A DNA stretch of 64,000 nucleotides from an archaeon (GCA_020053355.1 JAGVNI010000008.1:77195-141194), one strand, 5' to 3'. Positions 11,619-56,078 are shown, numbered from the stretch's first letter. Program-made: numbers and translations. The notes: generated by a model not told the origin, from the letters alone.

Positions 11619-12809
11619 ATGGCTTCTTTTGATAAAATACTTTCAGAGAAATCCATCTTCAAGGACCTCTCGGTCCTCTCGCCCCACTATGTGCCGAAAG
11701 AGCTCCCGTACCGGAACCAGCAGATGCACGAAATCCGCACCGTGCTCTCCCCGGCGCTGAAGGGGCAGAAGCCGCGCAACCTGATTATCTACGGGAAGAC
11801 CGGAACCGGCAAGACCTGCACCACGAAAAAGGTCATGGATGAGTTCATCGAGGCCAAATCCTTGGGCAAGACGAGCATGCATTATGTGAATTGCAGGATA
11901 TACAATTCGCGCTACCGCATACTCCAGAGGTTACTCAAGGGATACATCCCGGAACTCGAGAAGTCCGGCTTCGGGCTCCCGTTCCTTTACGAGAAACTGG
12001 TCGAGATAGCATCCGGGGGAGAGCAGCTGGTGGTAATCCTCGATGAGATAGACATGGTAAAAGACCTGGACGAGCTGGTTTACACGCTCACGCGCTCGAA
12101 TGATGAAATCAAGAAGGGCGGGGTGAGCATCATCGGCATCTCCAACCGCTTGTCATTCAAGGATTCCCTGGATGCCCGGAGCAAGAGCAGCCTGTATGAG
12201 ACCGAGATGATTTTCGAGCCGTACACCGCAGAGCAGCTGCAGAAGATACTCGAGCAGAGGGTGAAGGAGGGGTTCGGGGACGGGGTCGTGGAGAGCGGGG
12301 CGATAAACCTGGCTTCCGCAATCACATCCCAGGAAAGCGGCGATGCCAGGTATGCCCTGAAACTCCTCAACAAGGCCGGTGAGATGGCCCAGCAGGTCGG
12401 CAAGGAGAAGGTCACCGATGACGATGTCGAAAACGCCAGGAAAAAAGTCGAGTTGGACCTGACCCTCGAAACGATTAACACGCTCCCCGAGATGCACCAG
12501 CTGGTGCTGTATGCGATTGCGACCCTGACCAGGAGTGGGAGCAGATATTCACGCCTCGAAGGGGTGGACACGGGATTCCTTTTCTCGGGCGAGGTCTATG
12601 AGGAGTATGAAAGGGCATGCAAAACCGCAAGGAAAAGGCCGCGAAGCTCCCGCTGGTACAAGGAATACCTCAACGACCTGGAGACGCTCGGCATGATTGT
12701 CGCGACGCCGAGCGGGAAGGGAATCAGGGGACAGACAACGCTAATCAAGCTCGGCCCGAATCCTGAGAGCGTCATGACAATCCTGAAAAAGAACCTATTC
12801 GGCAGCTGA
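11619..12809 (+). CDS. orc1: Orc1/Cdc6 replication initiator
   Basis: AAA+ Walker A IIYGKTGTGKT, Walker B VVILDEID, sensor motifs and a C-terminal winged helix are present. The 396-aa length fits. Confidence 0.85.
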   Translation: MASFDKILSEKSIFKDLSVLSPHYVPKELPYRNQQMHEIRTVLSPALKGQKPRNLIIYGKTGTGKTCTTKKVMDEFIEAKSLGKTSMHYVNCRIYNSRYRILQRLLKGYIPELEKSGFGLPFLYEKLVEIASGGEQLVVILDEIDMVKDLDELVYTLTRSNDEIKKGGVSIIGISNRLSFKDSLDARSKSSLYETEMIFEPYTAEQLQKILEQRVKEGFGDGVVESGAINLASAITSQESGDARYALKLLNKAGEMAQQVGKEKVTDDDVENARKKVELDLTLETINTLPEMHQLVLYAIATLTRSGSRYSRLEGVDTGFLFSGEVYEEYERACKTARKRPRSSRWYKEYLNDLETLGMIVATPSGKGIRGQTTLIKLGPNPESVMTILKKNLFGS

Positions 12810-29377: not shown

Positions 29378-29593
29378 AGACTTGGCAGGATCCTTCCGCG
29401 GCATATCCTGGAAGAGATGCCAGGATAGCTGGATTTATACCCCCAACCCGCGGGCAGGAAGCCCATTATTCTAATTGAGGATGGCCTAGGGGAGTCTTGC
29501 GGCTAAAGCTGAAGGAATCCCCCCAAGGTAAAGGGGAAAATATGGGGAAAGGCCGGCAACTAGCGGGGTTGCCCTAAGGAAGTTTCGCGACCG

Positions 29594-29645
29594 ACAGAAA
29601 ACGCCCTGCGTTTTCTGTGGTCCATGGAACGAAACGTCGTTCCAT
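29594..29645. terminator. two adjacent perfect hairpins in convergent intergenic region (11-bp ACAGAAAACGC/GCGTTTTCTGT and 9-bp ATGGAACGA/TCGTTCCAT)
   Basis: They lie between the 3' ends of tfe (+) and the 853-aa gene (-). The first stem carries T4 on both strands. Confidence 0.35.
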
Positions 29646-29681
29646 CGGAGCCTTTAACCTAAGTGAAACAAAAGGAAAGGC

Positions 29682-32243
29682 TCACATCGATTTGAACTCG
29701 ATTAGCATCTTCTCCAATTCATCCACGGTGCTAAGTAGCAGTGAAGAGCTGTCGGATTCCATCTTCACAATCAGCGGGGCTATCGATGGAGACGAGTTCA
29801 TGATTGTCTGGAACTGCTCCTTGTCGGAATTGTTCCTGAAGAGGATTATCGCTATCCCCCTGCCTATCGTCGGAATCACCTGGGCAAGCAAGGCCTTCGC
29901 GTCCATGCCCTTGCGGTAGAAATGGAGGGACATCTGCTGGCCTACGACGGTTATCTCGCTGTCGGCTTCCTTGGATTCGCCAAGGCCCGTAAACGGGATG
30001 GCGTTGTTCACGCATATGTCGCGGAGGCGGCGCATGAGCGAGAGGTAGTCCACGCTGTGCCCGCTCTTGTCCTCCCAGGTCGAGAGGCCGTAGTACCCGA
30101 GGGATTCTTTCACCGCGCCTTTTTTCTCGAGCTCATCAAGCAGGTATTCGACGTTGTAATCGGTGATGTAGACCGGTTTTCCCGAATGGAATATGTCCTT
30201 GAAGCCGTTCTTGACCTCGGCGGTCGTGAGGGGCGTGGTCTGCCAGCGGTAGTTCTCGTTGACTTTCTCGAAGATTCCAAGGACCGCATCAGGCGTGAGG
30301 GGTATCTTGGTCCTTGTCACCGGGGGGAAGTCCGGGATGTCGATTGAGAAGAACACCGACTCCTGCCTTGCGAATACGACACCCACGCCGACGATGCCGG
30401 CCGAAAGGAGCATGGTCACCCAGAAAATCGGCTCATCGAAGAGCGTCTTGGACCGCAGATGCGACACCGGCACGGAAACTTTCAGGCCGCCGGCTGTGAA
30501 TGCGAAGCTGTGCTTGCCGAGGGGAAGGAGGTCGTTTCCGGTGTACTGGCCGACATCCACCCTAAGCTTGTCCACGTTATTGAATGTGTATGTGCCATAC
30601 TGGCCGCCATCCACGTTCACTTTGACCTCGTTCAGCACCTTCGGCGTGCCGTCCATTTTGATGTCGAAGACGTATACCGACCGCTTCTGCTGGTCCGTGC
30701 CGAGGTAGCCGATGTCGATTGAGACCACTTTCATATAAGTCTGCGCGTACACGTTGCTCTCGTCGTCCATGAGCCGGACGAGGTACTCGCCCCGGTTCAG
30801 GTAGATGAGAACGTCGAAAGAGGCGTCGGCCTGCACGTTCACGTTGCCCTCCGGGAATGTCTGTATTTCCGTGCCGTTGCTATCCAGCACGGTAAGGTAC
30901 ATGTTGGGCTGCGATGCCACGGGTTCGCGGAGCTGCGCGTTCATGCGGACCGGGAGGTTGGTTATGTTGGCGGAGACCACCCGGCCGCCCTCTTCTATGA
31001 ACAGGGAATTGTTCCTCTGTTTCTCAATCCTCATGTAGAGGGTCTCCCGGATGGGGTTGTCGGAGGTTGACGAGTAGCCGAGGAAGTCCATGCGGACCGT
31101 GGTTTGTGGGGATTCGAAAGGCTCTGAGAACAGGTATTGCCTTCCGGTATAGTTCGTCTGGTTCAGGAACGCGTATGTCTTGTTCTCCGAGCTCGTCTCG
31201 GCCCAGGGTATCTCGAAAACGATGCGCGCGACATCATCGGCTGCCGCGGTGAAGTTGCCCCTCCAGCCGCCATCGAGGGTCTGGGGGATGAACATGAAGG
31301 CCCCGTCGCCGCGCTTTATTATGCTGAGCACCCCGTACTTCAGGTCGCCGGTCCATCCTGAGCTGGGATTGGCCTGGTATAGCGGCTGGAACAGGTGGAA
31401 GCCGCTGCTTGATGAAAGTGTGCTCCTTTCGTCGAATTTCACCGGAAGGGCCGAGAGGGTTTCCTTCGGGGTGAATGCTACGAGCGTGCCGTTTAGCATC
31501 TTCGTGAAAGGCTGGCCGATATACAGGATGACAATCCCGCGGTCGGCCAGTTTGTTCATAGACAGCTGGCTGTCGACGCCCAGTATTTCCTTTGGGATGG
31601 CGCCTGAAGGGACAACCACCAGCGCCCCGTCGGGAACGGTCTCGAGCTGCTTCAGAGTTATCTCATTCAGTATAATCTTCCGTTTCGCGAGGTTCACGCG
31701 GAGCGTGGATATGAAATCCGCATAGGTTGTCGCCTCGAACCTTTCGCTGTTTAGGATGAACACCTCGGACGGGATTTTCGAGTCGTAAGTGGTCATGTTG
31801 ATGGTATAGTTCTTCAGGTTCCCGGTCTCGTAATCGACGACCACCGCCGCGGTGTATGTGGGTTTGCCGCGTGCGCCGGTGCTGAGCAGTTCCCCTTCCA
31901 TCAGGGTATTCTGGATGAACGCTTTTTCGACCTGGGGCGCGAATGCGCCGGCAGCAGGCTGAAGGAGGGATGTCAGATACAGCCAGGCCATCCCGAAAAT
32001 GATGAGCGCAATCAGTATGAATGCGCCGAAGACCATGAAGTTGAATCCGCCCCGGGGCGGCTCCCGGACAACCGCGGCCGCCTTCTTCTCCGGTTTCTTC
32101 GGGGCCATCAGCGATTTTATCCGGTCCTTGAAAATCTCGATTGGGGGCCGCGCCTTCGCCCGGTAATGGCCGATGTACTGGTACTTCTTCTTGAGCTCGA
32201 AGTTGTATACCTTTTTCTTGATTTTCACGCTTGATTCGGCCAT
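29682..32243 (-). CDS. large two-TM protein with a roughly 500-aa extracytoplasmic domain (operon member)
   Basis: TM helices lie near residues 57-80 and 590-610. Numerous N-x-S/T sequons are in the central domain. It is the last gene of the five-gene minus-strand operon. Confidence 0.5.
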   Translation of the reverse strand: MAESSVKIKKKVYNFELKKKYQYIGHYRAKARPPIEIFKDRIKSLMAPKKPEKKAAAVVREPPRGGFNFMVFGAFILIALIIFGMAWLYLTSLLQPAAGAFAPQVEKAFIQNTLMEGELLSTGARGKPTYTAAVVVDYETGNLKNYTINMTTYDSKIPSEVFILNSERFEATTYADFISTLRVNLAKRKIILNEITLKQLETVPDGALVVVPSGAIPKEILGVDSQLSMNKLADRGIVILYIGQPFTKMLNGTLVAFTPKETLSALPVKFDERSTLSSSSGFHLFQPLYQANPSSGWTGDLKYGVLSIIKRGDGAFMFIPQTLDGGWRGNFTAAADDVARIVFEIPWAETSSENKTYAFLNQTNYTGRQYLFSEPFESPQTTVRMDFLGYSSTSDNPIRETLYMRIEKQRNNSLFIEEGGRVVSANITNLPVRMNAQLREPVASQPNMYLTVLDSNGTEIQTFPEGNVNVQADASFDVLIYLNRGEYLVRLMDDESNVYAQTYMKVVSIDIGYLGTDQQKRSVYVFDIKMDGTPKVLNEVKVNVDGGQYGTYTFNNVDKLRVDVGQYTGNDLLPLGKHSFAFTAGGLKVSVPVSHLRSKTLFDEPIFWVTMLLSAGIVGVGVVFARQESVFFSIDIPDFPPVTRTKIPLTPDAVLGIFEKVNENYRWQTTPLTTAEVKNGFKDIFHSGKPVYITDYNVEYLLDELEKKGAVKESLGYYGLSTWEDKSGHSVDYLSLMRRLRDICVNNAIPFTGLGESKEADSEITVVGQQMSLHFYRKGMDAKALLAQVIPTIGRGIAIILFRNNSDKEQFQTIMNSSPSIAPLIVKMESDSSSLLLSTVDELEKMLIEFKSM

Positions 32244-32252
32244 GTGGAAACC

Positions 32253-33068
32253 CTACTGCACAACTTCCAGATATCCTTCGCTGACCAGCTTGTTCAGCAG
32301 TTCTTCGACGCGGGCATCCGAGACCTTGTAGACTTTCGTGAACTCCGTGATATTCATGGTCCCGCTGTGCTCGGCCACCCACTCCTGGAGCTTGGCTTTG
32401 AGGGCATCATCGGAGAGCCCTTCCAGGTTCTGCACGCGGAGCTTGTAATCGTCGTTCTGCGTCTTCAGTTCATAATTCTGCGATGTCAGCGCCTGGTTCT
32501 GCTCGGAAAGCCGGTCGACTTTCTTCTTCAGGTCGTCGACCTCCTTCTTGAGCGAGTCATAGGAGGTGTAAAGCTTATTGTAGTCCATGGTGACCGAGCC
32601 TGCAAGCTCCTTTATCGCGTTCTCAATCAGCTGGTAGACCGTCTTGTTGTCGACAGAGTAGGACGATTCCATGAGGGAGAGGATGTTGAGGAGGTAGCGG
32701 ATGACGTCCACCCTCCTCTTCTTCGGGCTGATTTCGGACGGTATCGTGTACAGAATCTCCAGCTCGTCCTCCTTGACCTTGATGATGGAGAAGAGGTACG
32801 GGTTCTTGTCGATGTCGCGGCTTTCCACGTAAATGACGTTCAGGACGTCCTTTTCCGGAGCGAGCTCCAGGAAGGAAATCGAGCGCAGGATGGTGGCCAG
32901 GTCTTTCAATTTGCCTTGGGTCAGCCGCCCCTTTATCTTGAAGCCGTCGACTTGGGGCGGGTGGATTTCCTCCTTCGCGGAGGGGCCCCCCGAACCTTTC
33001 TGGGCTGGGGGCGCTGGCGCGCCCGGGGCGCCGGTGCTTTTCTTGGCTTGTGGCAATGGAAGCGGCAT
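32253..33068 (-). CDS. coiled-coil protein with C-terminal wHTH-like segment (operon member)
   Basis: The N-terminus is Pro/Ala/Gly-rich. A central heptad-like region reads LKKEVDDLKKKVDRLSEQNQALTSQNYELKTQNDDYKLRVQNLE. The C-terminus is ITEFTKVYKVSDARVEELLNKLVSEGYLEVV. Confidence 0.45.
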   Translation of the reverse strand: MPLPLPQAKKSTGAPGAPAPPAQKGSGGPSAKEEIHPPQVDGFKIKGRLTQGKLKDLATILRSISFLELAPEKDVLNVIYVESRDIDKNPYLFSIIKVKEDELEILYTIPSEISPKKRRVDVIRYLLNILSLMESSYSVDNKTVYQLIENAIKELAGSVTMDYNKLYTSYDSLKKEVDDLKKKVDRLSEQNQALTSQNYELKTQNDDYKLRVQNLEGLSDDALKAKLQEWVAEHSGTMNITEFTKVYKVSDARVEELLNKLVSEGYLEVVQ

Positions 33069-33077
33069 TTCAACACC

Positions 33078-33740
33078 TCATTTTTTCCTGGATTTCTTTG
33101 TGCTCCTGCTTTCTTTTTTCTCCTCTTTCTTCTGGACCGGCCGGGTTTCCGGTTGCGCGGCTTTCGGCTTCTCGGCTGCGGCCTGGGCAGGCTGGGCCGG
33201 CGGATAATAGGGCTGCTGCCTGGCTGCAGGGGCCGGGGGCGAATATGGCTCGCGAGGATATGCGGGGATTGGCGGTGATGAGCGGGCCTGCACGGTGGAT
33301 TGCGCATAGGATGCGCTCACGCCGACGACGGCAGGCACGTATTTGAACATTATCGGGATGAAAACCACGATGCCGGCGACGATTATCCCGGAGAGTATCG
33401 CCCAGGGCTCGAAGCGGCCATAGAGCATGGGCACCAGGATGAGGAGTATGAGCAGGATGCCCGCAAGCACGCTGGCAAAAAGCAGGGTCTTCTCGAATGA
33501 GCGCCTCCGTTCGTTGTGCTTCGACATGCAGCCTTCGCAGACGAAAAGCTGGTTCATCTGCGCTATTCCCAGGGCTTTCTTGATGGCCCGGATTGTCTTG
33601 ATTATGCGGTCTTCCTTGACCGGCAAGGCCCGCCTTCCGGCTATGTCGGTCTGGCAGGAAATGCACATCTTCTTTCCGGATGAGGAACCAGGATTGACAT
33701 TCTCAGACATACCATCCACCCCTTCATTCCTCCAGGACAA
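33078..33740 (-). CDS. zinc-ribbon membrane protein with Pro-rich and Lys-rich tail (operon member)
   Basis: CISCQ...CEGC forms a 4-Cys ribbon. Two TM helices follow, then a PPAPAARQQPYYPPAQPAQAAAEKPKAAQP and KKEEKKESRSTKKSRKK tail. Confidence 0.45.
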   Translation of the reverse strand: MSWRNEGVDGMSENVNPGSSSGKKMCISCQTDIAGRRALPVKEDRIIKTIRAIKKALGIAQMNQLFVCEGCMSKHNERRRSFEKTLLFASVLAGILLILLILVPMLYGRFEPWAILSGIIVAGIVVFIPIMFKYVPAVVGVSASYAQSTVQARSSPPIPAYPREPYSPPAPAARQQPYYPPAQPAQAAAEKPKAAQPETRPVQKKEEKKESRSTKKSRKK

Positions 33741-35307
33741 CCTGGCTGATTTCGCGGCCCACGCCGCCGCTCTTCTTCAGGTCCACTTTGCCGAATATGT
33801 TGATGATTGTGACATCGTCGATGCCGGAGTCTTTCAGGAAATCGCCGATGTTCCTCCTGGCGATGCCGTCGCGCTCGAGGGTCAGGACGAAAGAGACGAC
33901 GTCCATGCGCCTATTCGACTTCTCGAAGTTCTTTGTGAGGTCCTCGATTTTCTCGTCGGTCATGCCGAACTGCCGTAGCTTCCGCCTGAAATCTTCCTTA
34001 AGGAACGAAACGCTTCTTGACACTGCAACATCCCTCCTCTGCTTGTCTGTGAGCACACCGGATAGGTCGAGGAAATATTCCTTGCTCGGCTCCTCGCCCT
34101 CTATCTTGTCGATCAGGAACGTGGACGGGTACGGCGTCGGCAGGGTGAGCGACAGGTTGACCGCGCACTGGCCCACGCCGAGCCGGGCTATTTCATCGCG
34201 CATATAGTTGCTGAAATTCAGCGAACCCTGCAGATAATCGAGGAACTTCTCGAACTTCACCTTCAGGATGAAAGTCGTGCCGACGTTGGAGAAGATGGCC
34301 TCGCTGATGTCCGTCGGGTTCTGCGACGCGATAATCATCGCGAAGTTGTACTTGCGGCCTTCGCGGACTATCATGACCGCGTCCGAGTTCTCGTCTTTCC
34401 CTATCTTCCATGCTTCGTCCAGCACGATTAGGAGGCGCAGCCCCTTCTGGTAGGACCAGCCCTCCAGCCTCATCTTCTCCTTGATGAACTGCAATAGCGT
34501 AAGCGCGGCAAGGGCGCGCGAGGTCTCGTCCGGAAGCCCGGAAAGGTCCATGTCGACCAGGCCTGATGAAATCAAATCATCCAGGCTCACCGTGCTCTGC
34601 TGGGCGAAGAAATCCTCGCCGGGTTTGGTGAACTGCTTGAGCCTATAAATCGCGTTCTCCAGTTCTGCCGGGAATTCGTAGGTTCCGACCTGCGACTGCT
34701 CGGTGAGCACGCGGACGACGTCTTTGAGGGTCGGGGGCGAAAGCGGCTTGCCGAGCTCGTCCTTCTGCTCCCGGGCATCCATCCTGAACTTGTTTTCAAG
34801 ATAGACCTTCTCGATAGCCTGCTCGGTGAGGCGCCTCTGTTCGGGGTAGTTGGTGATGTCGGTAAGGAGCTCCATCGTCCGCATGACCTGCTTGATGCGG
34901 TCGTACGGCTTCATGCCCCCCAAATCCAGGAGGTTCAGGTATGAGCCCTTGCCGAGCGAGACGATTTTGCCGCCGCTCTGCTTCACCCAGTCCTTGTATT
35001 CCCCGGCCCAGTCGATGATGAGCGCGTTGCTGTTCCAGACGAATGCCGAGCGGAGGAGGAAGGTCTTGATGAAGTAGGACTTGCCCGAACCGGATATGCC
35101 GACTATGGCCACGTGGGGGTTGGCCACGTTCTGGTAGCTCCAGTAGAAAGGCATGTTGAATATCTTGGTCCGGCCAATGTAGACCGAGTCCGTGGGGTCG
35201 GCGAAGAGGACTTCCATCGGGGGCTCCGGCGGGTGCACTAGAAGGTTGCGCCTGGATATGGCTGAATTTGACAGCTTGACGAGCCTCAGCTTTCCCCCGA
35301 CTGCCAT
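33724..35307 (-). CDS. HerA/VirB4-like (DUF87 family) P-loop ATPase (operon member)
   Basis: Walker A is HVAIVGISGSGKSYF. Walker B is LLIVLDEAW. REGRKYNFAMIIASQNP matches the DUF87/HerA arginine-finger region. The start was refined to MAVGGKL, which overlaps the upstream stop in a TAATG junction. Confidence 0.7.
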   Translation of the reverse strand: MAVGGKLRLVKLSNSAISRRNLLVHPPEPPMEVLFADPTDSVYIGRTKIFNMPFYWSYQNVANPHVAIVGISGSGKSYFIKTFLLRSAFVWNSNALIIDWAGEYKDWVKQSGGKIVSLGKGSYLNLLDLGGMKPYDRIKQVMRTMELLTDITNYPEQRRLTEQAIEKVYLENKFRMDAREQKDELGKPLSPPTLKDVVRVLTEQSQVGTYEFPAELENAIYRLKQFTKPGEDFFAQQSTVSLDDLISSGLVDMDLSGLPDETSRALAALTLLQFIKEKMRLEGWSYQKGLRLLIVLDEAWKIGKDENSDAVMIVREGRKYNFAMIIASQNPTDISEAIFSNVGTTFILKVKFEKFLDYLQGSLNFSNYMRDEIARLGVGQCAVNLSLTLPTPYPSTFLIDKIEGEEPSKEYFLDLSGVLTDKQRRDVAVSRSVSFLKEDFRRKLRQFGMTDEKIEDLTKNFEKSNRRMDVVSFVLTLERDGIARRNIGDFLKDSGIDDVTIINIFGKVDLKKSGGVGREISQVVLEE

Positions 35308-36116
35308 TAAATCACGCTCTCCTCCATCTCCTGCACCGTGGTCGGGAAGAACTTGTCCCACTCAAAGCATTTGAGCATCTCATCCCCTGAGAGGCTGACA
35401 ACCTCGACGTTGAGGGCGTTCGCGATGACTGTCTTCAGCTCGTTCGCCTGGGACCGGGCGCTTGCCATGGCCGCGTCCTTGCTGAGGCCGACCGCAGTCG
35501 TCTGCGCGAAGGCTATCACGCCCATGGGCTTCACGCCCTTGATCAGCTTGGTCAGCTGGTTGTCCCAGATGGCCACTTCGCGCTCTAATTTGTCCATCCT
35601 AAGGACATCGGGCTGGCCCTTGTCGCGCTCGCGGGCAAGGCGCAGCTGCGCCTCGGCGCGCTTGGTCTCGATAAGCTTCCGCTTCTCGCCCACGTCCTCG
35701 ACGTAAAGCAGGTATGCTATCTTCGTGACGTACTTGATGTTCGAGATGGCGCGCTCGAAGAACTGGTTGTAGGACATCGTCTCCTCGTTGGACTTTTCGG
35801 TCGCCGATTCGAATATCTTGAGGCCCAGGAAAGCCGATGCGTAGAATATGCCGTTGGAGTTCTTTATGATGACATCCTGCGTCGGGGGGACCTCGTAGCC
35901 GAGGTCGGACATCATCACGATTTTCGTCCTCTCTGTGATGAGGGGTATCATGATGTAGCCGTATCTCCAGAAAAGCACGCCGAGCAGGGAACCCGAAAAA
36001 CAGAGCAGCGCCCCGACCAGCGAAAGCAGGCCCCCGCCGCCGATGAGGGAAAACAGCGCTCCGAGAAATCCGACCGCGATAGCGGCATAAGTGTAGGTCT
36101 TCGACGGTGTAGGCAT
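35307..36116 (-). CDS. membrane protein (first gene of operon)
   Basis: It has two N-terminal TM helices and a roughly 190-aa soluble domain. On the minus strand a TATA-like TTTTTATAT lies about 38 nt upstream and a GAGGT Shine-Dalgarno 5 nt upstream. Confidence 0.45.
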   Translation of the reverse strand: MPTPSKTYTYAAIAVGFLGALFSLIGGGGLLSLVGALLCFSGSLLGVLFWRYGYIMIPLITERTKIVMMSDLGYEVPPTQDVIIKNSNGIFYASAFLGLKIFESATEKSNEETMSYNQFFERAISNIKYVTKIAYLLYVEDVGEKRKLIETKRAEAQLRLARERDKGQPDVLRMDKLEREVAIWDNQLTKLIKGVKPMGVIAFAQTTAVGLSKDAAMASARSQANELKTVIANALNVEVVSLSGDEMLKCFEWDKFFPTTVQEMEESVI

Positions 36117-36283
36117 ACCATATACCTCTGGTTTGATAGATTAATTAAGAAAGGATATAAAAACCACGCGATTGCGTTCATGACGTAATTTTAAGCGCCC
36201 GCCCAGTTCAACAGCCTAAAAAGCCGGCTTGAAAGGGCCGGCCATTCCCGGCACCCATCCTCCGGGTTGCGCCATAAGGACAC

Positions 36284-43175: not shown

Positions 43176-43293
43176 GCAGGAGTAGCGAAGCGGTCAAACG
43201 CGGTGGACTTAAGAGCCGCCATTCCCGGACCGAATGCGGCATGGGAAATCCTCTGGCTCAGCGCCTTCGAAGGTTCGAATCCTTCCTCCTGCA
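43176..43293 (+). tRNA. tRNA-Leu (anticodon TAA) candidate with a roughly 34-nt intron
   Basis: A perfect 7-bp acceptor stem GCAGGAG/CTCCTGC with discriminator A. The T-arm is GAAGG-TTCGAAT-CCTTC. A 3-bp D-stem carries a GG-containing loop. The anticodon loop is CTTAAGA (G37), followed by an inserted 34 nt and a long variable arm. The anticodon stem has one U:U mismatch. The gene is not in the ORF track. Confidence 0.6.
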
Positions 43294-49638: not shown

Positions 49639-51756
49639 CTAGCTATACTCCCAACACTCGGGCTCGCCGATGTAGAATCCCAGCCAGCACGTATGCCCGG
49701 CAATCCCGTCCACGACAGCAGTGATTTTGCCGCTGGTGTGGGGGTCGCCGGTTATCGTATAATCGGTGCCGTTGGTGTCCGCATTCGTCAGCGTCACGCC
49801 GCCCTCGGTCGTCCATACGACGCTCGTGCAGGTCTCGTTGGCGTGCTCGCCGCACATTATGCTGACCCAGCCGTTAGCGCCAGGGAACACGCTGAGCGTG
49901 CTGGAGCCGATTGTGCACCACTGGTTCGAACCGGGGTTGTCCGGGTCGGTGTTGTTCGTGTCGTTGGTGTCGTTCGTGTCGTTGCTGGAGCCGTTTATCA
50001 CGATTATCGGGGCGAGAACGACTTTACCGACCATCGGGTCGGGCATGGTCACCCAGCTCGCGAAACCGCGCAGGTCCCCAGTATCGGGCGAAGCGGGCGC
50101 GTTGTAGGTCGTGCCGTCCGTGCTGGAGTTGCTTGTGCTGCCGCCGAGGCCGTTGACGAGGGAATAATCCGCGTCGTCAGGCTCGCTTTGGGTGTGGTTC
50201 ACGAAGCAGTTGAGGTCGAAGAACTTCGAGGTGCTGATGTTCATGGTCGCGCTGGCGGGTATGAACTCGCACTCGTATTCGCTCCCCAGGCCGTTTTCCG
50301 TCACGTCGATGTCTGAGAGGCAGTGCGCTATGCCGGAGGCGTAGTTGAGCGTGCCGCTCGCGCCAGGCGTGTCAGTCGAATACGCCCATGCGTATGAGCT
50401 GGTCTTGGCCATGAAAGCGCCATCGAGGCTGTCCCAGTACCAGTTTGAGCCGGTACAGGCGACCGGGTCTCCGGCCAAATTCTCGCAGGTAACGGTGAAT
50501 TCCGCGACTGTGAGTGGCGCAAGCTCTAATGCGGGCGGAACTATGGCGCATGTGATTGCGCCTGAGAGGTCCACCGTGTCAGTGCCCGATGCCGCCGAAC
50601 CGCATGTGGCAGAGGCGGTCGTCCCATGGAATGTGAGCACCGTTCCGCCGGAAGCGCCTGCTCCGCGGACAAGGAGCACGTAAAGGTCCTTGTTTGCCCC
50701 GGTTGCTATGTCCTCGTTGAACCCGTTCGATGCCGGGCACCATGAGGGCGGGAAGCCCCAGACGCTGGTGCACTGCGCCACCGGGAACGCGATTACCGTG
50801 TAGTCCGGATTCGAGCTGGATACGCTCGTTATGCGCACCGGGTCGCCGGTGTTGTGTTCAGTCACTTTTACCATAATCACGTCTTCGTCGGTCAGGGAGC
50901 TGCCCGCGCTGACGCTTCCAGGCACCTCGTTGAACGCGACGGTGCCGCCGGATGTTGCCACGGTCACCGTTATCGAATCAGATGCTACGGTCGAACCGAT
51001 TGCCGGCGCATTGTGAGTGAAATAATCGAGCCAGAACCACGAGGGGTTGTCTGGTATGTTGAGCGGGTGCTTGACAACCGCTCCGAAGCAGTTCACGCCG
51101 GAGAGCCGCGTCGATATCGCGTGCGAGCCCGCGGTGTTCACCACGAAGTCTACGTTGCTGGCCGTTGGCATTGCGGAGCTGCCCTTTACGGTCGCGCCGT
51201 CAGCAACTTCGAAAGTACCTTTGCAGAACAGTCCTGCCCCGCCTTCCTTGCCGCTGTGGAATTCGCCGGTGTTGTTGTTATATGTCACCGGCTCGTTGTA
51301 GAAGTTCGACTCTCCAAGGGCGCTGTATTTCGCAGGGTCCTGGGAGAAATCGTTGGCATCGCCGAATGTCTTATGGGTGTTCCATGTCGATGCGGAAAGC
51401 CAGCCGATGTTCTTGTTAGAGCTGACGCCGCCGGCCGAGGTCATGGGCGGGCAATATCCTCCGCCGCACGTCGGATAGATTGCAGTGGCGGCAAAATCGG
51501 GAGTTGCCCATTTGGTACTGACAGTTGGCACTACACGGAGTGTTGCACCCGTACAGACCTCATCCCCAGTCTGCAGGTTGTTCGGGTCGCCGCTGGCAAC
51601 CTCGCCTGAAACAAGCTGGAGCGTGAAATCGCTCGTGAATTGCATATCCGTGTCGAAATGCCATGTCGAATCCGAGCCCTGGTAGTTCGCGTTGTTCACA
51701 TTTGTTGCGAACGCGGATGCCGCGAGCACGAATATCATGGCCAGTAGTTTTTTCAT
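49639..51756 (-). CDS. large secreted Thr/Ser/Gly-rich surface protein
   Basis: The start was refined to MKKLLAMIFVLAASAFA, a signal peptide with a GGTGGGAGGA Shine-Dalgarno just upstream. The C-terminus is NDTNDTNDTNNTDPDNPGSN. Cys pairs are scattered through the protein. Confidence 0.5.
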   Translation of the reverse strand: MKKLLAMIFVLAASAFATNVNNANYQGSDSTWHFDTDMQFTSDFTLQLVSGEVASGDPNNLQTGDEVCTGATLRVVPTVSTKWATPDFAATAIYPTCGGGYCPPMTSAGGVSSNKNIGWLSASTWNTHKTFGDANDFSQDPAKYSALGESNFYNEPVTYNNNTGEFHSGKEGGAGLFCKGTFEVADGATVKGSSAMPTASNVDFVVNTAGSHAISTRLSGVNCFGAVVKHPLNIPDNPSWFWLDYFTHNAPAIGSTVASDSITVTVATSGGTVAFNEVPGSVSAGSSLTDEDVIMVKVTEHNTGDPVRITSVSSSNPDYTVIAFPVAQCTSVWGFPPSWCPASNGFNEDIATGANKDLYVLLVRGAGASGGTVLTFHGTTASATCGSAASGTDTVDLSGAITCAIVPPALELAPLTVAEFTVTCENLAGDPVACTGSNWYWDSLDGAFMAKTSSYAWAYSTDTPGASGTLNYASGIAHCLSDIDVTENGLGSEYECEFIPASATMNISTSKFFDLNCFVNHTQSEPDDADYSLVNGLGGSTSNSSTDGTTYNAPASPDTGDLRGFASWVTMPDPMVGKVVLAPIIVINGSSNDTNDTNDTNNTDPDNPGSNQWCTIGSSTLSVFPGANGWVSIMCGEHANETCTSVVWTTEGGVTLTNADTNGTDYTITGDPHTSGKITAVVDGIAGHTCWLGFYIGEPECWEYS

Positions 51757-51769
51757 GTCCTCCCACCCT

Positions 51770-53719
51770 TCACTGACTTCTCCTCCTTCTCGGGACAGCT
51801 GACCCGACTGCTTTGTCACCCGAAGACTTCTGGCTCTCTCCTCCCCCGAACCAGAGCTGGGGTGTCAATGTGATGTTGAGCCCACCATAGGGCGTCGCCG
51901 GGATGCGGTCTTCCTCCCTGCCGCCGACCTCGCCGATATAGCCGCCCCGGATGTCTACCGAAACGCCTCGGTCGTAGCGGAACCCGAATGTCCCGTATCC
52001 GTCAAGCGTGTGGTAGAGGGCCTCGCCAGTCGCATCGTAGCGCGTCGAGTACCTGAAGCCGGGACCGAAGAAAAGGCTCCAGCCCTCGGCCACCTGCCAG
52101 TTGAAATCCGCCGGGCGGATGTCCACCATGCTTCCGTGCTGCTCAAGGAAGTGCTGGTAGCCGAGTGTCGCCTGTGAGCGGATTCTCATCGTGTTGCCTT
52201 CGTACCAGTTGCCATCGAATGTGACGTTGGCGTATGCATTCACCGGGCTCCCCACCGCGCCGACGCTCACCGAGGACATCCTCACCATCATGCGCTGGCC
52301 TTCACGTCCGGGGAAATTGATTTGCGCTCCCCACGGGCCGATGTATGCGCCAGCCTGCGAGGTTTCAAGGCGCTGGGAACCGCCCCCTTGGGTCGGAACG
52401 TCAGCTCCGATTGTGTATGCCTGGTAGCCGACGTTGCAATGGAACACCATCTCCACAGGGTGGCTCCATGCGCTGAACCCGAGTGCGAGCTGCGGGGTGA
52501 CGCTGAAAACGTCGCCCGTGCCTTCCACCCTCCGGCGGCTCACTTCATTCACCGAACCGGGCGAGCCGCCCGTCCCGGGAGTGACAGCGAGCTGCCTCAA
52601 TTGCCCCGAAAGGAGGAGGCGTTCGTAATTCAGGCCGAGCGCCAGCCACAGGATGCGGGGCTCGAACGAGCCTGATGCCGAGCCGCGGATGAATGACGTG
52701 AATGCCGCCTGGTTCTCATCGAATTCGTAGCGCGCGGTGACGCCGGCCCTCATCACCGTGACAGCCCTTTGGTTGATTGAGATGACATAGAGGTTGTTCA
52801 TCTGCCCATAAAGCGCGTTGAATGAAGTTTCCTGCGAAAGCTCGCTAAGGGCTGTGCGGAGGTCGCCCCGCTGCAGAGCCTGCATGGCGCTGTTGAAGTG
52901 GGGGTGGATTGTGCTGTTCCAGATTTCCTTGTCATGGGGAATCGCATTGAGGGCGCTGTAGAGCGACGTCGCTGCGGCCTGCTGTGCAGCGAGGTCGTTT
53001 GGATGGTTCGCCATGGTCGCATATGCGTTAGCCATCGCGTTGATGCCAGCCGTTGCAGTGGCATTTCCGCCGAACATGGAATCCAGGGCAGGGGTGCTCG
53101 AGGCGTTGAGGGCGACGACCGATTCGCTTGAAGAGCTTGAAAGCAGGTGGATGGGGCCAAGGTCGCGGAGCGGCGTCTCAATCAGCGGAAGGGCCGTCGC
53201 AGTCGTCGTGGTGTCCGTTGCCGTCGGAGCGGCCACAGCCTCCCCGCCGCGGGCGACGCGCAATAACGAGGTCACTATGTTTCCAATGGCCTCGTATGCC
53301 AGGAAGCTCGCGGTGCCGGCGCCGATTCCGGCGTCGATTGGCGTGAGCATGGCTTCCACATTTGGAGCGGCCGTGCCCATGTCCCCCCCGGCCACAACCA
53401 GCGTGTTCAGCCTGCGGATTGACACGATATGGGAATTCGTAAGGAATGTGACTGCCCCGTCGCGGCCGTTGTCTTCGCCGAGCGTTGCAACTGCGGCGTC
53501 ATAGACCGCCCTGCGCGCATCGCCTTCGGGGGGCCTGGAGCCGCGCACGATTTCGAGTATCTCGCCGATTCTCACCGCATTGTTTGCCGCGGCAAGCGCC
53601 GTAGGCGCGTTGGTTGGATGAGTTGCGCTCATGGCAGATGGAAGCTGCCGAATTATCGCCAAGTGCTGCTCGTACCCAGTTGATTCCGCCGGTCTTTCCC
53701 TTTGCGCAGTTCCGCCCAT
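51770..53719 (-). CDS. large secreted protein, paralog of 53798..56005, with beta-rich C-terminal domain
   Basis: An AGGTGA Shine-Dalgarno lies 5 nt upstream. The shared block is IPHDKEIWNSTIHPHFNSAMQALQRGDLRTAL. The C-terminal 200 aa show alternating aromatic/Gly periodicity. Confidence 0.45.
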   Translation of the reverse strand: MGGTAQRERPAESTGYEQHLAIIRQLPSAMSATHPTNAPTALAAANNAVRIGEILEIVRGSRPPEGDARRAVYDAAVATLGEDNGRDGAVTFLTNSHIVSIRRLNTLVVAGGDMGTAAPNVEAMLTPIDAGIGAGTASFLAYEAIGNIVTSLLRVARGGEAVAAPTATDTTTTATALPLIETPLRDLGPIHLLSSSSSESVVALNASSTPALDSMFGGNATATAGINAMANAYATMANHPNDLAAQQAAATSLYSALNAIPHDKEIWNSTIHPHFNSAMQALQRGDLRTALSELSQETSFNALYGQMNNLYVISINQRAVTVMRAGVTARYEFDENQAAFTSFIRGSASGSFEPRILWLALGLNYERLLLSGQLRQLAVTPGTGGSPGSVNEVSRRRVEGTGDVFSVTPQLALGFSAWSHPVEMVFHCNVGYQAYTIGADVPTQGGGSQRLETSQAGAYIGPWGAQINFPGREGQRMMVRMSSVSVGAVGSPVNAYANVTFDGNWYEGNTMRIRSQATLGYQHFLEQHGSMVDIRPADFNWQVAEGWSLFFGPGFRYSTRYDATGEALYHTLDGYGTFGFRYDRGVSVDIRGGYIGEVGGREEDRIPATPYGGLNITLTPQLWFGGGESQKSSGDKAVGSAVPRRRRSQ

Positions 53720-53797
53720 AGTTTCACCTTATAATTATCGGTAAAAATAAGGGTGAAAGGTTATTAAAAAGCGTCAGGCGGAGACTGGCGCAGGCGC

Positions 53798-56005
53798 TCA
53801 TTTGTTTCCACCTGAGCCCGAGCCCGTGCCCGTGGTTACGCCGCCATCCACCCGGACCGCGCTCGTACCGCTGCTGCTTGAGAACCAGGCAGCCGGAGTG
53901 AGGATGACATTCAGCATGCCAGTTACGGTCCTTGGGACATGGAAGGCTTCATCGCCGCCCACGTCTGTCACCCATCCGACGCGCGCATCCAGGGCGAGTC
54001 CGCCGGGTGCCCACCGCCAGCTTGCATGGCCGTATGGCTCGAATGTGTGTATGCCCTGCTCTATGTTGGCGGTGTATTGGAGGCCCGGCCCGAGATACAC
54101 GGTGTGCCCGTTGCCCGTCTGGACTGTGAAATCCAGGGGGCGGAGGTCGCCGCCGACGCGGTTCTGGAAGAACAGCGGGTTCTCGAAACCTTCCTGCCGC
54201 CTTCCCCAGAAGAGCATGTACTGCGGCGTGAGCGAATGCTCGAGACGCATCGAGTTGCCGACGAACGACCGCGCGGTCAGGGTGAAGTAGGCGTAAGGGT
54301 TCAGGTTGAACATGCCGATTCCCCACCTGCTTAGCCTGAATGCGTTGTTCCTCGCTTCGTAGCCGACCATCGCGGCATCGAAATTCAGCATGCCGTATAT
54401 GGTGCCGGAGTCCACCGACAGCGTCCTTCCGCTCTCGTCCGGCGCCTGGATGCCCCACCAGAGGTATCCAAGGCGGGCAGAGAGCGTGGCTTCGACAGGC
54501 TGCTTGAACATGGTTCCTCCGAAAGTGATGCCGGCCATGCCGTCTACTGCATGGCCTTCGCCATCAACAGCGCGCGCCGAGCCTACCGGCGTCAGGCGGA
54601 ATGAGTTGAGGTCAAGGCTGTAAGCCTGGAGCCTTCCGCTCATAAGAAGATTGGAGTAGTTCGCGCCGATATTGTAGTAAAGCACGTCCCACGGGTATGC
54701 CCTGCCTTCGGTGCCCTGCCTGAAAGAGAGGAACTCCGCCGGATTGGTGCCGTCCGGGAACCGCAGGGTTATCCCTGTCCGGATGCGCGCGATGGCCCTC
54801 TGGCTGAGAGTGAGCTGGTTGAGGTTGCCGAGAGTGGACCAGACCGCATTGAACGCGGTTTCGCTGCGGAGGGCCGCGAGGCCTCCGCGAAGGTCACCCT
54901 GGGCGAGAGCGGTCATCGCCGCGTTGAAGCCGGGCCTTGACCAGATTTCTTTATCAGAGGGAATCTGGCTGAGCGCGGAATGCAATGCATGCGCCGCATT
55001 CGCCTGCGCCGCGGGGTCATTTGGAGAGTTGGTCAGCGTTTCCATGGCGTCAGCCCAGACGGTGAGCGCGCCCTGCGCTATGCCTGCCCCGCCGAAAAGG
55101 GAGTTCAGGGCGGGCGTGCTCTCCGGGTCTGCCATGACGAACCTGCCCTGGCCGAATCCGCTCAGCATGAAATCCGAGCCGTAGTAGAACGGAATCGTCT
55201 CAATGGACGGAAGCGGCGGAACCTGTGTCAGGGGGTCCTCCACTCTCGGTGCAGCGGTTTCCGTGCACACTTCCCCGCCGTGCATCATGCGCACGAGGCA
55301 CTGGACGGTGTTGCCGGCACGCTCCAGCGTCGTGGTGGTGCCCTGCGGCCCGCCTATAGTATTATCAAGGTCGACGAGCCTCTGCTCGAGAGCAGCTGCA
55401 TCCGCGCCCAGGCCTGCCGGAGTCTGAGCAAGGCGCCTGAGGTTTCCCATGCCGCGCACAAGCGCGGTGTCGATTGCGGCAACAGCCGCGTCGGCGCCGC
55501 CCCATGTGCGTATCGCTGAATCATAAGCCGCCCGTTCGGGGGTGGCCTGCTGGCCATCGGCAGGAGCTGCCGGAGGGCTCCGTACCAGGTCCCGAAGCTG
55601 GAACATGCGCACAAGATTGGTCGTGAGAACGTCCGCGGCATTCACGTTTGCCGGATGCGTGTTGCTTTCAACTGCGGCTGCCATCGCCCCGGGGAGGCCC
55701 TCGATTGCCGTGGCCGTCGGTGCCGGAGCGGACGTAGGCGATGCCGGCGCTGATACAGGAACTGCATCCGCCGAGCCTGCTTCTGCGACTGCGGTGGCAG
55801 AGGCGTCTGGTTGCGGTGCTACCCCGCCGTCAGGCCCGTTCTGCGCGCGGGCGAATCCCGGCGCTATGAATAGTGCGATTCCGAGGGCTCCCGCTGCGGC
55901 GATTTCCCTCAAACGGCTGTTCCTCGCCGATTCGGCCGTCCTTGCGGCGCTGCCCTTGCATCCATCCAGTGCATTTTCCGAAACATTGTCATGTCTGAGT
56001 TTCAC
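53798..56005 (-). CDS. large secreted protein, paralog of 51770..53719
   Basis: A signal-like segment GALGIALFIAPGFARAQ is present. Blocks such as IPSDKEIWSRPGFNAAMTALAQGDLRGGL are conserved with the paralog. The start is probably GTG. Confidence 0.45.
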   Translation of the reverse strand: MKLRHDNVSENALDGCKGSAARTAESARNSRLREIAAAGALGIALFIAPGFARAQNGPDGGVAPQPDASATAVAEAGSADAVPVSAPASPTSAPAPTATAIEGLPGAMAAAVESNTHPANVNAADVLTTNLVRMFQLRDLVRSPPAAPADGQQATPERAAYDSAIRTWGGADAAVAAIDTALVRGMGNLRRLAQTPAGLGADAAALEQRLVDLDNTIGGPQGTTTTLERAGNTVQCLVRMMHGGEVCTETAAPRVEDPLTQVPPLPSIETIPFYYGSDFMLSGFGQGRFVMADPESTPALNSLFGGAGIAQGALTVWADAMETLTNSPNDPAAQANAAHALHSALSQIPSDKEIWSRPGFNAAMTALAQGDLRGGLAALRSETAFNAVWSTLGNLNQLTLSQRAIARIRTGITLRFPDGTNPAEFLSFRQGTEGRAYPWDVLYYNIGANYSNLLMSGRLQAYSLDLNSFRLTPVGSARAVDGEGHAVDGMAGITFGGTMFKQPVEATLSARLGYLWWGIQAPDESGRTLSVDSGTIYGMLNFDAAMVGYEARNNAFRLSRWGIGMFNLNPYAYFTLTARSFVGNSMRLEHSLTPQYMLFWGRRQEGFENPLFFQNRVGGDLRPLDFTVQTGNGHTVYLGPGLQYTANIEQGIHTFEPYGHASWRWAPGGLALDARVGWVTDVGGDEAFHVPRTVTGMLNVILTPAAWFSSSSGTSAVRVDGGVTTGTGSGSGGNK

Positions 56006-56078
56006 GCATTCTCCCTCCCTATTTTTTATTATTCAGGGGCGTCTCCGCCCCCGACCCACCCTAATGAATGCTATCCGC

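Follow-up and report, generated by a model that had tools for sequence, protein, structure and literature searches.

In Sulfolobales and Desulfurococcales the Ced system (CedA, CedA1, CedA2, CedB and CedD/CedE) is a chromosomal, relaxase-less derivative of a type IV secretion system (T4SS), and its ATPases CedB and CedD work in DNA import (PMC11868833). The Ted system of Thermoproteales comprises the VirB6-like TedA, the VirB4-like TedB and the VirB2-like TedC (PMC9905601), and on the bacterial side a near-universal relaxase-less T4SS occurs in the ultra-small symbionts of the Patescibacteria (PMC12102498). Here we describe a five-gene operon on the minus strand (positions 29,682 to 36,116) of a 64,000-nucleotide stretch of DNA (GCA_020053355.1, JAGVNI010000008.1:77195-141194), called the window below and counted from its first letter, whose source organism is a micrarchaeote (DPANN). 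We consider it probable that the operon encodes a domesticated, T4SS-derived, Ced/Ted-like membrane translocation apparatus with new accessory parts, in which genes 1 and 2 jointly make up a split VirB4/CedB. DPANN archaea such as the tiny, symbiotic Micrarchaeota have reduced genomes and depend on hosts, and their exchange of material with those hosts is largely unexplained. The operon is a concrete candidate for DNA or macromolecule transfer in the Micrarchaeota; it mirrors the Patescibacteria T4SS on the archaeal side and would extend domesticated conjugation from hyperthermophilic Crenarchaeota to DPANN. Its parts are as follows.

Gene 1: 35307..36116, minus strand, 269 aa; N-terminal transmembrane (TM) hairpin and cytoplasmic α/β-plus-helical domain
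Gene 2: 33724..35307, minus strand, 527 aa from ATG (545 aa from an upstream GTG); P-loop ATPase
Gene 3: 33078..33710, minus strand, about 210 aa from the ATG at 33710 (the open reading frame from the TTG at 33740 is 220 aa); zinc ribbon, two TM segments
Gene 4: 32253..33068, minus strand, 271 aa; N-domain, coiled coil, winged-helix-like C-terminus
Gene 5: 29682..32243, minus strand, 853 aa; two TM segments, large ectodomain, cytoplasmic domain
Putative promoter and ribosome-binding region: 36121..36163, minus strand, read from the sequence with its function inferred
Likely transcription end: 29594..29681, minus strand, a T-rich run and two perfect hairpins, with its function inferred

An earlier note on this DNA had described one compact operon of five tightly packed genes, and at the level of the locus nearly all of that description held. 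The five minus-strand open reading frames (ORFs) are all present at their coordinates, gene 1 overlaps gene 2 in a TAATG, the remaining gaps measure 9-13 nt, and the Walker A, Walker B and RKYNFAMIIASQNP (RKYNF motif) strings given for the ATPase are all found in gene 2. The coordinates stood for genes 1, 2, 4 and 5, while the start of gene 3 had to be corrected: the Shine-Dalgarno-like GGGGTGGA precedes the ATG at 33710, which is most likely the true start rather than the TTG at 33740, giving a predicted protein of 210 aa and removing the overlap with gene 2. The single TATA-like box and Shine-Dalgarno sequence proposed 5′ of gene 1 are likewise there, as an AT-rich TTTTTATAT at 36163-36155 and a GAGGT at 36128-36124, 7 nt ahead of the gene 1 ATG, with TTAATTAA at 36148-36141 also lying within the putative promoter region. 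As for the hairpins reported after the last gene, the gene 5 stop codon directly precedes a T-rich run, and perfect hairpins of 11 bp (29594-29618) and 9 bp (29624-29645) follow. Within the operon the number of terminator-like sequences is at chance level (8 found, 7.4 expected). Downstream, a gene-free stretch of 300 nt (window 29378-29681) separates gene 5 from the convergent TFE gene; it holds several perfect inverted repeats (11-bp, 9-bp and 8-bp stems), and a search of it with Rfam at gathering thresholds returned nothing.

As a query, gene 2 matches 916 database proteins, the best 120 of which are 70-91% identical, and the named entries among these 120 belong to Candidatus Micrarchaeota, Bilamarchaeum or Bilamarchaeaceae. 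When relatives were sampled as one genome per GTDB species, a gene 2 relative was found encoded in at least 256 species genomes, and the best 80, with 55-93% identity, are all Micrarchaeota. Synteny was determined by tblastn of the window proteins against these best 80 loci. All five genes occur in identical order and strand in 66 of the 80, and for 11 of the 14 incomplete loci the missing gene falls beyond the end of the contig. Neighbourhood conservation had been set beforehand as a check on the proposal, and throughout the phylum the five genes proved to be inherited together in an unchanging order. Protein-level conservation in up to 80 other genomes also places the five ORFs far beyond chance ORFs; identities to the window proteins in these genomes are given below as minimum, median and maximum.

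Gene 1: 32, 54 and 88%
Gene 2: 55, 65 and 93%
Gene 3: 28, 38 and 65%
Gene 4: 25, 46 and 82%
Gene 5: 21, 30 and 75%

Both Pfam and NCBIfam support the DUF87/VirB4-like nature proposed for the gene 2 ATPase. Its Pfam matches are to DUF87 (2e-15), AAA_10 and the TraG P-loop domain, and the NCBIfam ranking is led by CedB (2e-21), followed by the mycoplasma VirB4 model VirB4_plasma (5e-20), CedD (1.5e-19) and CD1110 (1e-18), with HerA models weaker (about 4e-12) and FtsK models also below those for CedB and VirB4. In a PDB sequence search with gene 2, HerA structures come out on top, over its C-terminal half. The NCBIfam matches are confined to the C-terminal ATPase part of the models, and gene 2 is therefore without the VirB4/CedB N-domain. 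As judged from these profile matches, the protein is a P-loop ATPase of the VirB4/CedB clade within the FtsK-HerA superfamily. It ends in a helical domain of about 100 aa, and in L046 gene 2 is immediately followed by an extra ORF of some 100 aa (about 11730-12020), with equivalents in L050, L064 and L076, that duplicates this C-terminal domain (residues 428-525, 39-59% identity) and so shows the domain to be an independent module.

Two orthologues of gene 2, P0341 and P0342, are interrupted by inteins, each with Intein_splicing and LAGLIDADG_3 domains; one insertion lies right after the Walker A GSGK and the other inside Walker B, just before CVVDEAWK. To our knowledge inteins are unusual in a VirB4-like motor, and their presence fits a stably inherited, highly conserved gene. 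The window also encodes a second FtsK-HerA ATPase, distinct from gene 2 and about 30 kb from the operon (1935-3596, minus strand, 553 aa), which is of the HerA_C/DUF853 type (Pfam HerA_C, 1.4e-82) and has two predicted C-terminal TM segments.

Gene 1, for which hydropathy confirms the two TM segments noticed earlier as an N-terminal hairpin, is found upstream of the ATPase at 76 of the 80 loci. It has no Pfam or NCBIfam match, and its profile found nothing among PDB sequences. A profile search of 1.8 billion cluster representatives led to proteins of about 880 aa whose first 255 or so residues hold two TM helices. Four of these (P0375, P0384, P0391 and P0435) are collinear with the gene 1 hidden Markov model (HMM), which on the 873-aa fusion P0384 covers residues 2-254 (E 1.3e-6). 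Aligned by hhalign with the N-regions of these four and of P0386 and P0396, the gene 1 alignment gives a probability of 96.5% (E 1e-9, 231 columns), and the fused proteins are covered by the CedB model at positions 13-587 of 590 (E 6e-41). An AlphaFold2 (AF2) model of gene 1, built from a shallow alignment limited to sequences of 65% identity or more, has a predicted local distance difference test (pLDDT) score of 69.7; in a Foldseek search of the PDB, nine of its 12 best matches are R388 TrwK/VirB4 chains (best E 3.6e-3, probability 0.99). Wu et al. found the CedB N-domain to be a structural homologue of the R388 VirB4 N-domain (PDB 7o41) (PMC11868833).

Fused intermediates and the predicted fold together indicate that gene 1 corresponds to the N-terminal membrane domain of a CedB/VirB4-type ATPase, split off as a gene of its own, and is so probably a VirB3/VirB4-NTD-like anchor for the ATPase. 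The membrane-associated N-domain of the VirB4/CedB clade is thus present in this system as a separate polypeptide, gene 1 bringing the two-helix anchor and N-domain and gene 2 the motor. Gene 1 does not count as a new partner, being homologous to the N-domain of fused CedB-like ATPases. A UniRef label of 'SPFH domain / Band 7 family' on the gene 1 orthologue P0172 (Ca. Bilamarchaeum dharawalense) was not reproduced by Pfam or fold searches. Two metagenomic contigs (L088, 168-3890; L090, 3-3441) carry a Ced-like mini-cluster in which a 291-aa protein with a precomputed CedA1-domain match comes first, a protein of 60 aa, in which two hydrophobic stretches are read by eye, comes next, and an 873-888-aa fusion of a gene 1-like domain with the ATPase comes last. 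At their C-termini the fused CedB-like ATPases show, by eye, a winged helix together with a PD-(D/E)xK-like motif (D..VEVETK).

Candidates for further T4SS components are found beside the operon's relatives. In the clusters of more distant ATPases, L084-L087, the order is a small pilin-like protein, a polytopic protein of 314-357 aa (6-7 hydrophobic segments), a gene 1-like protein, the ATPase and a gene 4- or gene 5-like protein. Profiles of the pilin-like and polytopic proteins were built from these clusters and scanned over all loci. Pilin-like genes stand directly 5′ of gene 1, on the same strand, in seven of the 80 Micrarchaeota loci (L042-L045 and L059-L061, L045 being a Ca. Micrarchaeum species). 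In four further loci (L064, L068, L070 and L072; L064 comes from the complete Ca. Fermentimicrarchaeum limneticum genome) pilin genes lie upstream of a tandem array of 6-7 polytopic paralogues that fills the space between them and gene 1, and L039 has its sole pilin match about 8.7 kb upstream. The pilin of L044 passes the gathering threshold of Pfam T4SS_pilin (27.8 bits, threshold 26.6), that of L086 stays under it (25.6 bits), and that of L059 matches TrbC/VirB2 (1e-5) and TrwL (4e-5). The earlier note had set the operon apart from the known Ced and T4SS partner sets; with pilins, and in the clade of L064, L068, L070 and L072 polytopic arrays, preceding gene 1, that separation does not hold.

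Proteins of the tandem arrays are about 320-400 aa long (L064 486-8330; L068 2158-8342; L070 2138-8334; L072 1469-8323), and their amplification is a striking expansion of a putative channel component; a VirB6/CedA role is assigned to the polytopic proteins by position. L091 (Anstonellales) has pilin, polytopic protein and genes 1, 2 and 4, without genes 3 and 5, and L081, L083 and L092 retain only genes 1, 2 and 4 or genes 2 and 4; among the outgroup ATPase clusters two carry a Micrarchaeota label and one a Thermoproteota label. Two of the distant clusters also hold a second P-loop ATPase of 731-757 aa (L086 13179-15452; L087 13115-15310) with weak DUF87, Zot and TrwB matches, which might represent an analogue of a coupling protein. 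Both clusters are flanked by AbiEii and PIN toxin genes, and the window contains no counterpart.

Set against the described systems, the operon shares with Ced the nature of a chromosomal, relaxase-less T4SS derivative, its gene 2 motor comes nearest to the models of CedB and CedD, the CedB-like N-domain has its equivalent in gene 1, and relatives of the operon encode small two-helix pilin-like and polytopic proteins beside the motor. It differs in that the motor is split over two genes and is not a CedB equivalog (76 bits, cut-off 700), that genes 3, 4 and 5 are without Ced counterpart, and that it belongs to a DPANN archaeon, not to a crenarchaeon. A CedA-type polytopic protein with the motor and CedA1 or CedA2 pilins are absent from the window, whereas polytopic genes adjoin the L064, L068, L070, L072, L084-L087 and L091 loci; the pilins of other Micrarchaeota match bacterial-type VirB2, TrbC and T4SS_pilin models rather than CedA1. 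The string TedC/TedA/TedB (PMC9905601) is mirrored by the order pilin, polytopic protein, VirB4-like ATPase in L084-L087, L091 and the L064 group, a likeness of gene order, and the pilins on both sides are VirB2-like and carry a leader sequence. Ted loci nonetheless carry ParA/VirC1, HerA and Rad50 neighbours that are absent here, and genes 1, 3, 4 and 5 have not been described for Ted.

With the monoderm T4SS of the MPF-FATA class and its Patescibacteria form (PMC12102498) the operon has in common a VirB4-family motor, VirB2-like pilins in relatives, the lack of a relaxase and a parallel ecology, that of near-universal presence in ultra-small, host-dependent cells. Here, however, there is no recognizable VirD4, VirB6/TrbL, VirB8-like protein or hydrolase, the VirB4 N-domain is separate and the accessory set differs. 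HerA-NurA belongs to the same FtsK-HerA superfamily, as seen in the DUF87 match and in the HerA chains that head the PDB sequence matches to the C-terminal half of gene 2, but there is no match to NurA, Mre11 or Rad50, HerA models rank below those of CedB and VirB4, and the complex is membrane-anchored through gene 1. Distinctive of the system are the split motor, three new conserved components, its phylum-wide fixation in a DPANN lineage and, where the lineage of the window is concerned, the lack of pilin and channel genes linked to the operon. The split VirB4/CedB architecture and the three new conserved accessory proteins are now defined.

Profile searches had been named as a further check. 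Across Pfam, NCBIfam, PADLOC and PHROGs, families were found for the ATPase only, apart from compositional coiled-coil matches for gene 4; in Pfam and NCBIfam genes 1, 3 and 5 have no family match, and genes 3-5 match no known family. The descriptions offered earlier for these three proteins stood up. Gene 3, called a zinc-ribbon protein with two TM segments and a Pro-rich tail, does have four cysteines arranged as CxxC...CxxC and, by hydropathy of the window protein, two TM segments. In its orthologues (114-225 aa) conservation is 90% or higher for the first cysteine in either CxxC pair and about 70% for the second cysteine of the first pair, while the Pro- and Lys-rich tail is variable and not conserved. 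The zinc ribbon sits in the cytoplasm. Comparison of gene 3 with the pilins by hhalign found no relation, and hhalign of genes 3, 4 and 5 with the C-terminal parts of the fused ATPases, and with the proteins flanking these in L088 and L090, was negative.

Gene 4 consists of a conserved N-domain at about residues 60-150 with an ESRDI..NP motif, a coiled coil at about 155-215 and a winged-helix-like domain at about 220-270. The coiled coil and winged helix-turn-helix (HTH)-like C-terminus ascribed to it are in keeping with weak winged-helix matches of its profile, to the CdvB chain 2xvc (E 0.003) and to HTH regulators (about 0.5); the coiled coil itself weakly resembles ZapB, DivIC, FtsB and GpsB, a resemblance that is compositional. 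In most variants examined gene 4 follows the ATPase directly or with gene 3 between them. A gene 4-like gene comes after the ATPase in L081, L083, L091 and L092 (E 1e-17 to 1e-38), the match is weak in L085-L087 (E 1e-4 to 3e-3), and L084 has none; there a 648-aa gene 5-like protein follows the ATPase (E 8e-22).

Gene 5 has no Pfam, NCBIfam or PDB sequence match. The extracytoplasmic central domain of roughly 500 aa predicted for it lies between two TM helices, one at about 69-92 and the other at about 605-623. This stretch holds ten of the 12 N-x-S/T sequons of gene 5, and an AF2 model (pLDDT 81.8, mostly above 90 in the ectodomain) agrees. Its parts are as follows.

N-terminal part: basic cytoplasmic N-tail, TM1 at 69-92, β-rich linker, then the ectodomain at about 100-600
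Ectodomain, in the AF2 model: α/β domain at 161-347 and immunoglobulin (Ig)-like β-sandwiches at 348-600
C-terminal part: TM2 at 605-623, invariant juxtamembrane motif IDIPDFPP at 633-640, conserved α/β cytoplasmic domain at 651-853

Mean column conservation across the phylum is 0.47 for the α/β ectodomain, 0.61 for IDIPDFPP, 0.52 for the cytoplasmic domain and 0.35 for the Ig-like part, a pattern in keeping with a conserved core and a variable tip that faces outward. Residues 651-720 of the model form a helix-helix-helix-strand-strand run that we read as a winged-helix-like module.

Under the reading that we prefer, a domesticated Ced/Ted-like apparatus, an oligomer of genes 1 and 2 would sit at the cytoplasmic face of the membrane and power assembly or transport. 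Gene 3, with its zinc ribbon and TM hairpin, and gene 5, with its two TM helices, conserved juxtamembrane motif and cytoplasmic domain, may build or support the part that spans the membrane. Outside the membrane the conserved α/β domain of gene 5 would oligomerize, and the fast-evolving Ig-like domains of this protein could extend across the S-layer to contact a partner or host cell. Gene 4 might serve as a cytoplasmic adaptor that tethers the substrate, probably DNA, or regulates the motor. As to substrate and direction, we tentatively favour DNA import from a contacted cell, as in Ced, because the nearest characterized motors, CedB and CedD, act in DNA import (PMC11868833), because gene 4 carries a winged-helix-like module (weak PDB matches) and gene 5 residues 651-720 are read as another, and because the fused relatives end in a winged helix with the PD-(D/E)xK-like motif seen by eye. 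Imported DNA would serve recombination, nucleotide supply or both in an organism with a reduced genome.

Several observations weigh against the Ced/Ted-like reading. Gene 2 lies far under the curated cut-offs (76 against 700 bits for CedB, 48.5 against 643 for TIGR00929 VirB4_CagE and 66.7 against 325 for CD1110). The CedB model does not match the sequence of gene 1 directly, whether gene 1 is taken alone or joined to gene 2, so that the homology of gene 1 to the CedB N-domain rests on fused intermediates and on weak structural evidence. Neither the 64-kb window nor, in the 38 closest relatives, the surrounding ±10 kb contains a VirB2-like pilin or polytopic VirB6/CedA-type gene, and the channel of this lineage is thus not accounted for by the locus. 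The polytopic proteins of other loci have no Pfam or NCBIfam match and no detectable similarity to VirB6/TrbL or CedA, and their hhalign comparison with a CedA-like protein is insignificant (23% probability). The operon holds no nuclease, relaxase or coupling ATPase and does not identify the substrate, and its strong phylum-wide conservation is also compatible with a housekeeping role unrelated to exchange. One speculative idea, which we regard as unlikely, is that the Bilamarchaeaceae-like lineage of the window has dispensed with the VirB2-type pilin and the VirB6/CedA-type channel, genes 3 and 5 forming an unknown conduit that is driven by the split motor and essential for the symbiotic lifestyle. 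Such a minimal apparatus might take host DNA or nucleotides across direct cell-cell contact.

Our search of the literature returned no description of a Ced-, Ted- or T4SS-like system, or of these gene families, in Micrarchaeota or DPANN, and DPANN are not mentioned in the Ced/Ted paper. The earlier suggestion of an undescribed translocation apparatus stands as far as a membrane machine that this literature search did not find described is meant, but not in the sense of a categorically new one, as the machine belongs to the T4SS-derived Ced/Ted kind.

Other explanations differ in what the machine moves or in where it came from. The same type of machine could carry another cargo, being used for contact-dependent transfer of proteins or effectors (or of lipids or metabolites) and for adhesion in order to exploit a host archaeon, much as has been proposed for the Patescibacteria T4SS (PMC12102498) and for the nanohaloarchaeal giant proteins with VirB4 domains (PMC10266531). 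The host dependence of Micrarchaeota and the lack of a DNA-processing enzyme in the operon agree with this, and the rapid evolution of the Ig-like part of gene 5 (0.35, against 0.52 for the cytoplasmic domain) suits a partner-contact surface. We nevertheless regard it as improbable: the closest characterized ATPases are those of DNA import, winged-helix-like modules recur in gene 4, at residues 651-720 of gene 5 and, by eye and beside the PD-(D/E)xK-like motif, in the fused CedB-like relatives, and no candidate effector genes are linked to the operon. A membrane-anchored housekeeping DNA pump of the HerA/FtsK type, acting in segregation, division or repair, has still less to recommend it and appears very unlikely, because the HerA and FtsK models score below those of CedB and VirB4, no NurA, Mre11 or Rad50 is encoded nearby, gene 1 shares homology with the CedB N-domain and has its closest structural matches in VirB4, other Micrarchaeota have VirB2-like pilins co-linear with the operon, and the large ectodomain of gene 5 is hard to explain for an internal pump. 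What speaks for such a pump are the DUF87/HerA matches with HerA structures heading the PDB sequence search, the near-universal and apparently single-copy presence of the genes at 55-93% identity amid housekeeping genes, the inteins, which are typical of essential informational proteins, and the resemblance of the gene 4 coiled coil to ZapB, DivIC, FtsB and GpsB (compositional, as said above) and of its C-terminus to the CdvB winged helix.

An integrated conjugative element (ICE) or plasmid transfer module sitting in the chromosome is effectively excluded for this locus. Gene order is fixed in 66 of the 80 species genomes while the flanks vary with phylogeny, those with purB, TFE and a glycosyltransferase being common to close relatives only; the surroundings are housekeeping genes (purB, TFE, eIF2γ, PAC2, arginine decarboxylase and a P-type ATPase), and the GC content of the operon is that of its surroundings. 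The context of a mobile element is missing as well, with no integrase, relaxase, coupling protein or repeat boundaries noted around the operon, no Pfam or NCBIfam match to a relaxase or a VirD4/TraG coupling protein in the operon or the neighbouring genes scanned, and the nearest tRNA gene about 7 kb away. Gene 2 is related to the TraC/VirB4 ATPases of conjugative plasmids, and the distant L086/L087 clusters do contain a second P-loop ATPase and toxin-antitoxin genes, as a mobile origin would have it. In PLSDB, however, which was searched with genes 1 and 2, no plasmid matches gene 1, and the plasmid matches of gene 2 by tblastn are TraC/VirB4-type ATPases at most 27% identical to it; 4729 of the 5000 best-scoring records are predicted to be conjugative, and the annotated matches listed are TraC/TraG-type conjugation ATPases or DUF87/DUF853 proteins. 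The expectation that no plasmid transfer module would match closely was thus borne out for the two genes searched, neither of which has a close homologue on any plasmid. On synteny, composition and plasmid searches a mobile element was rejected, and the operon is a fixed chromosomal feature of the phylum.

Elsewhere in the window, four consecutive large ORFs on the minus strand (49639-60284; 726, 649, 735 and 1401 aa) have no Pfam match and lie in a segment of raised GC content (0.60-0.63, against about 0.56 in the rest of the window). An Rfam tRNA match on the plus strand (43176-43293) spans 118 nt on a 71-position model and was not called by ARAGORN, which did call an 88-nt tRNA-Ala at 539-626 on the same strand. 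Both tRNA genes probably contain introns, which are common in archaea.

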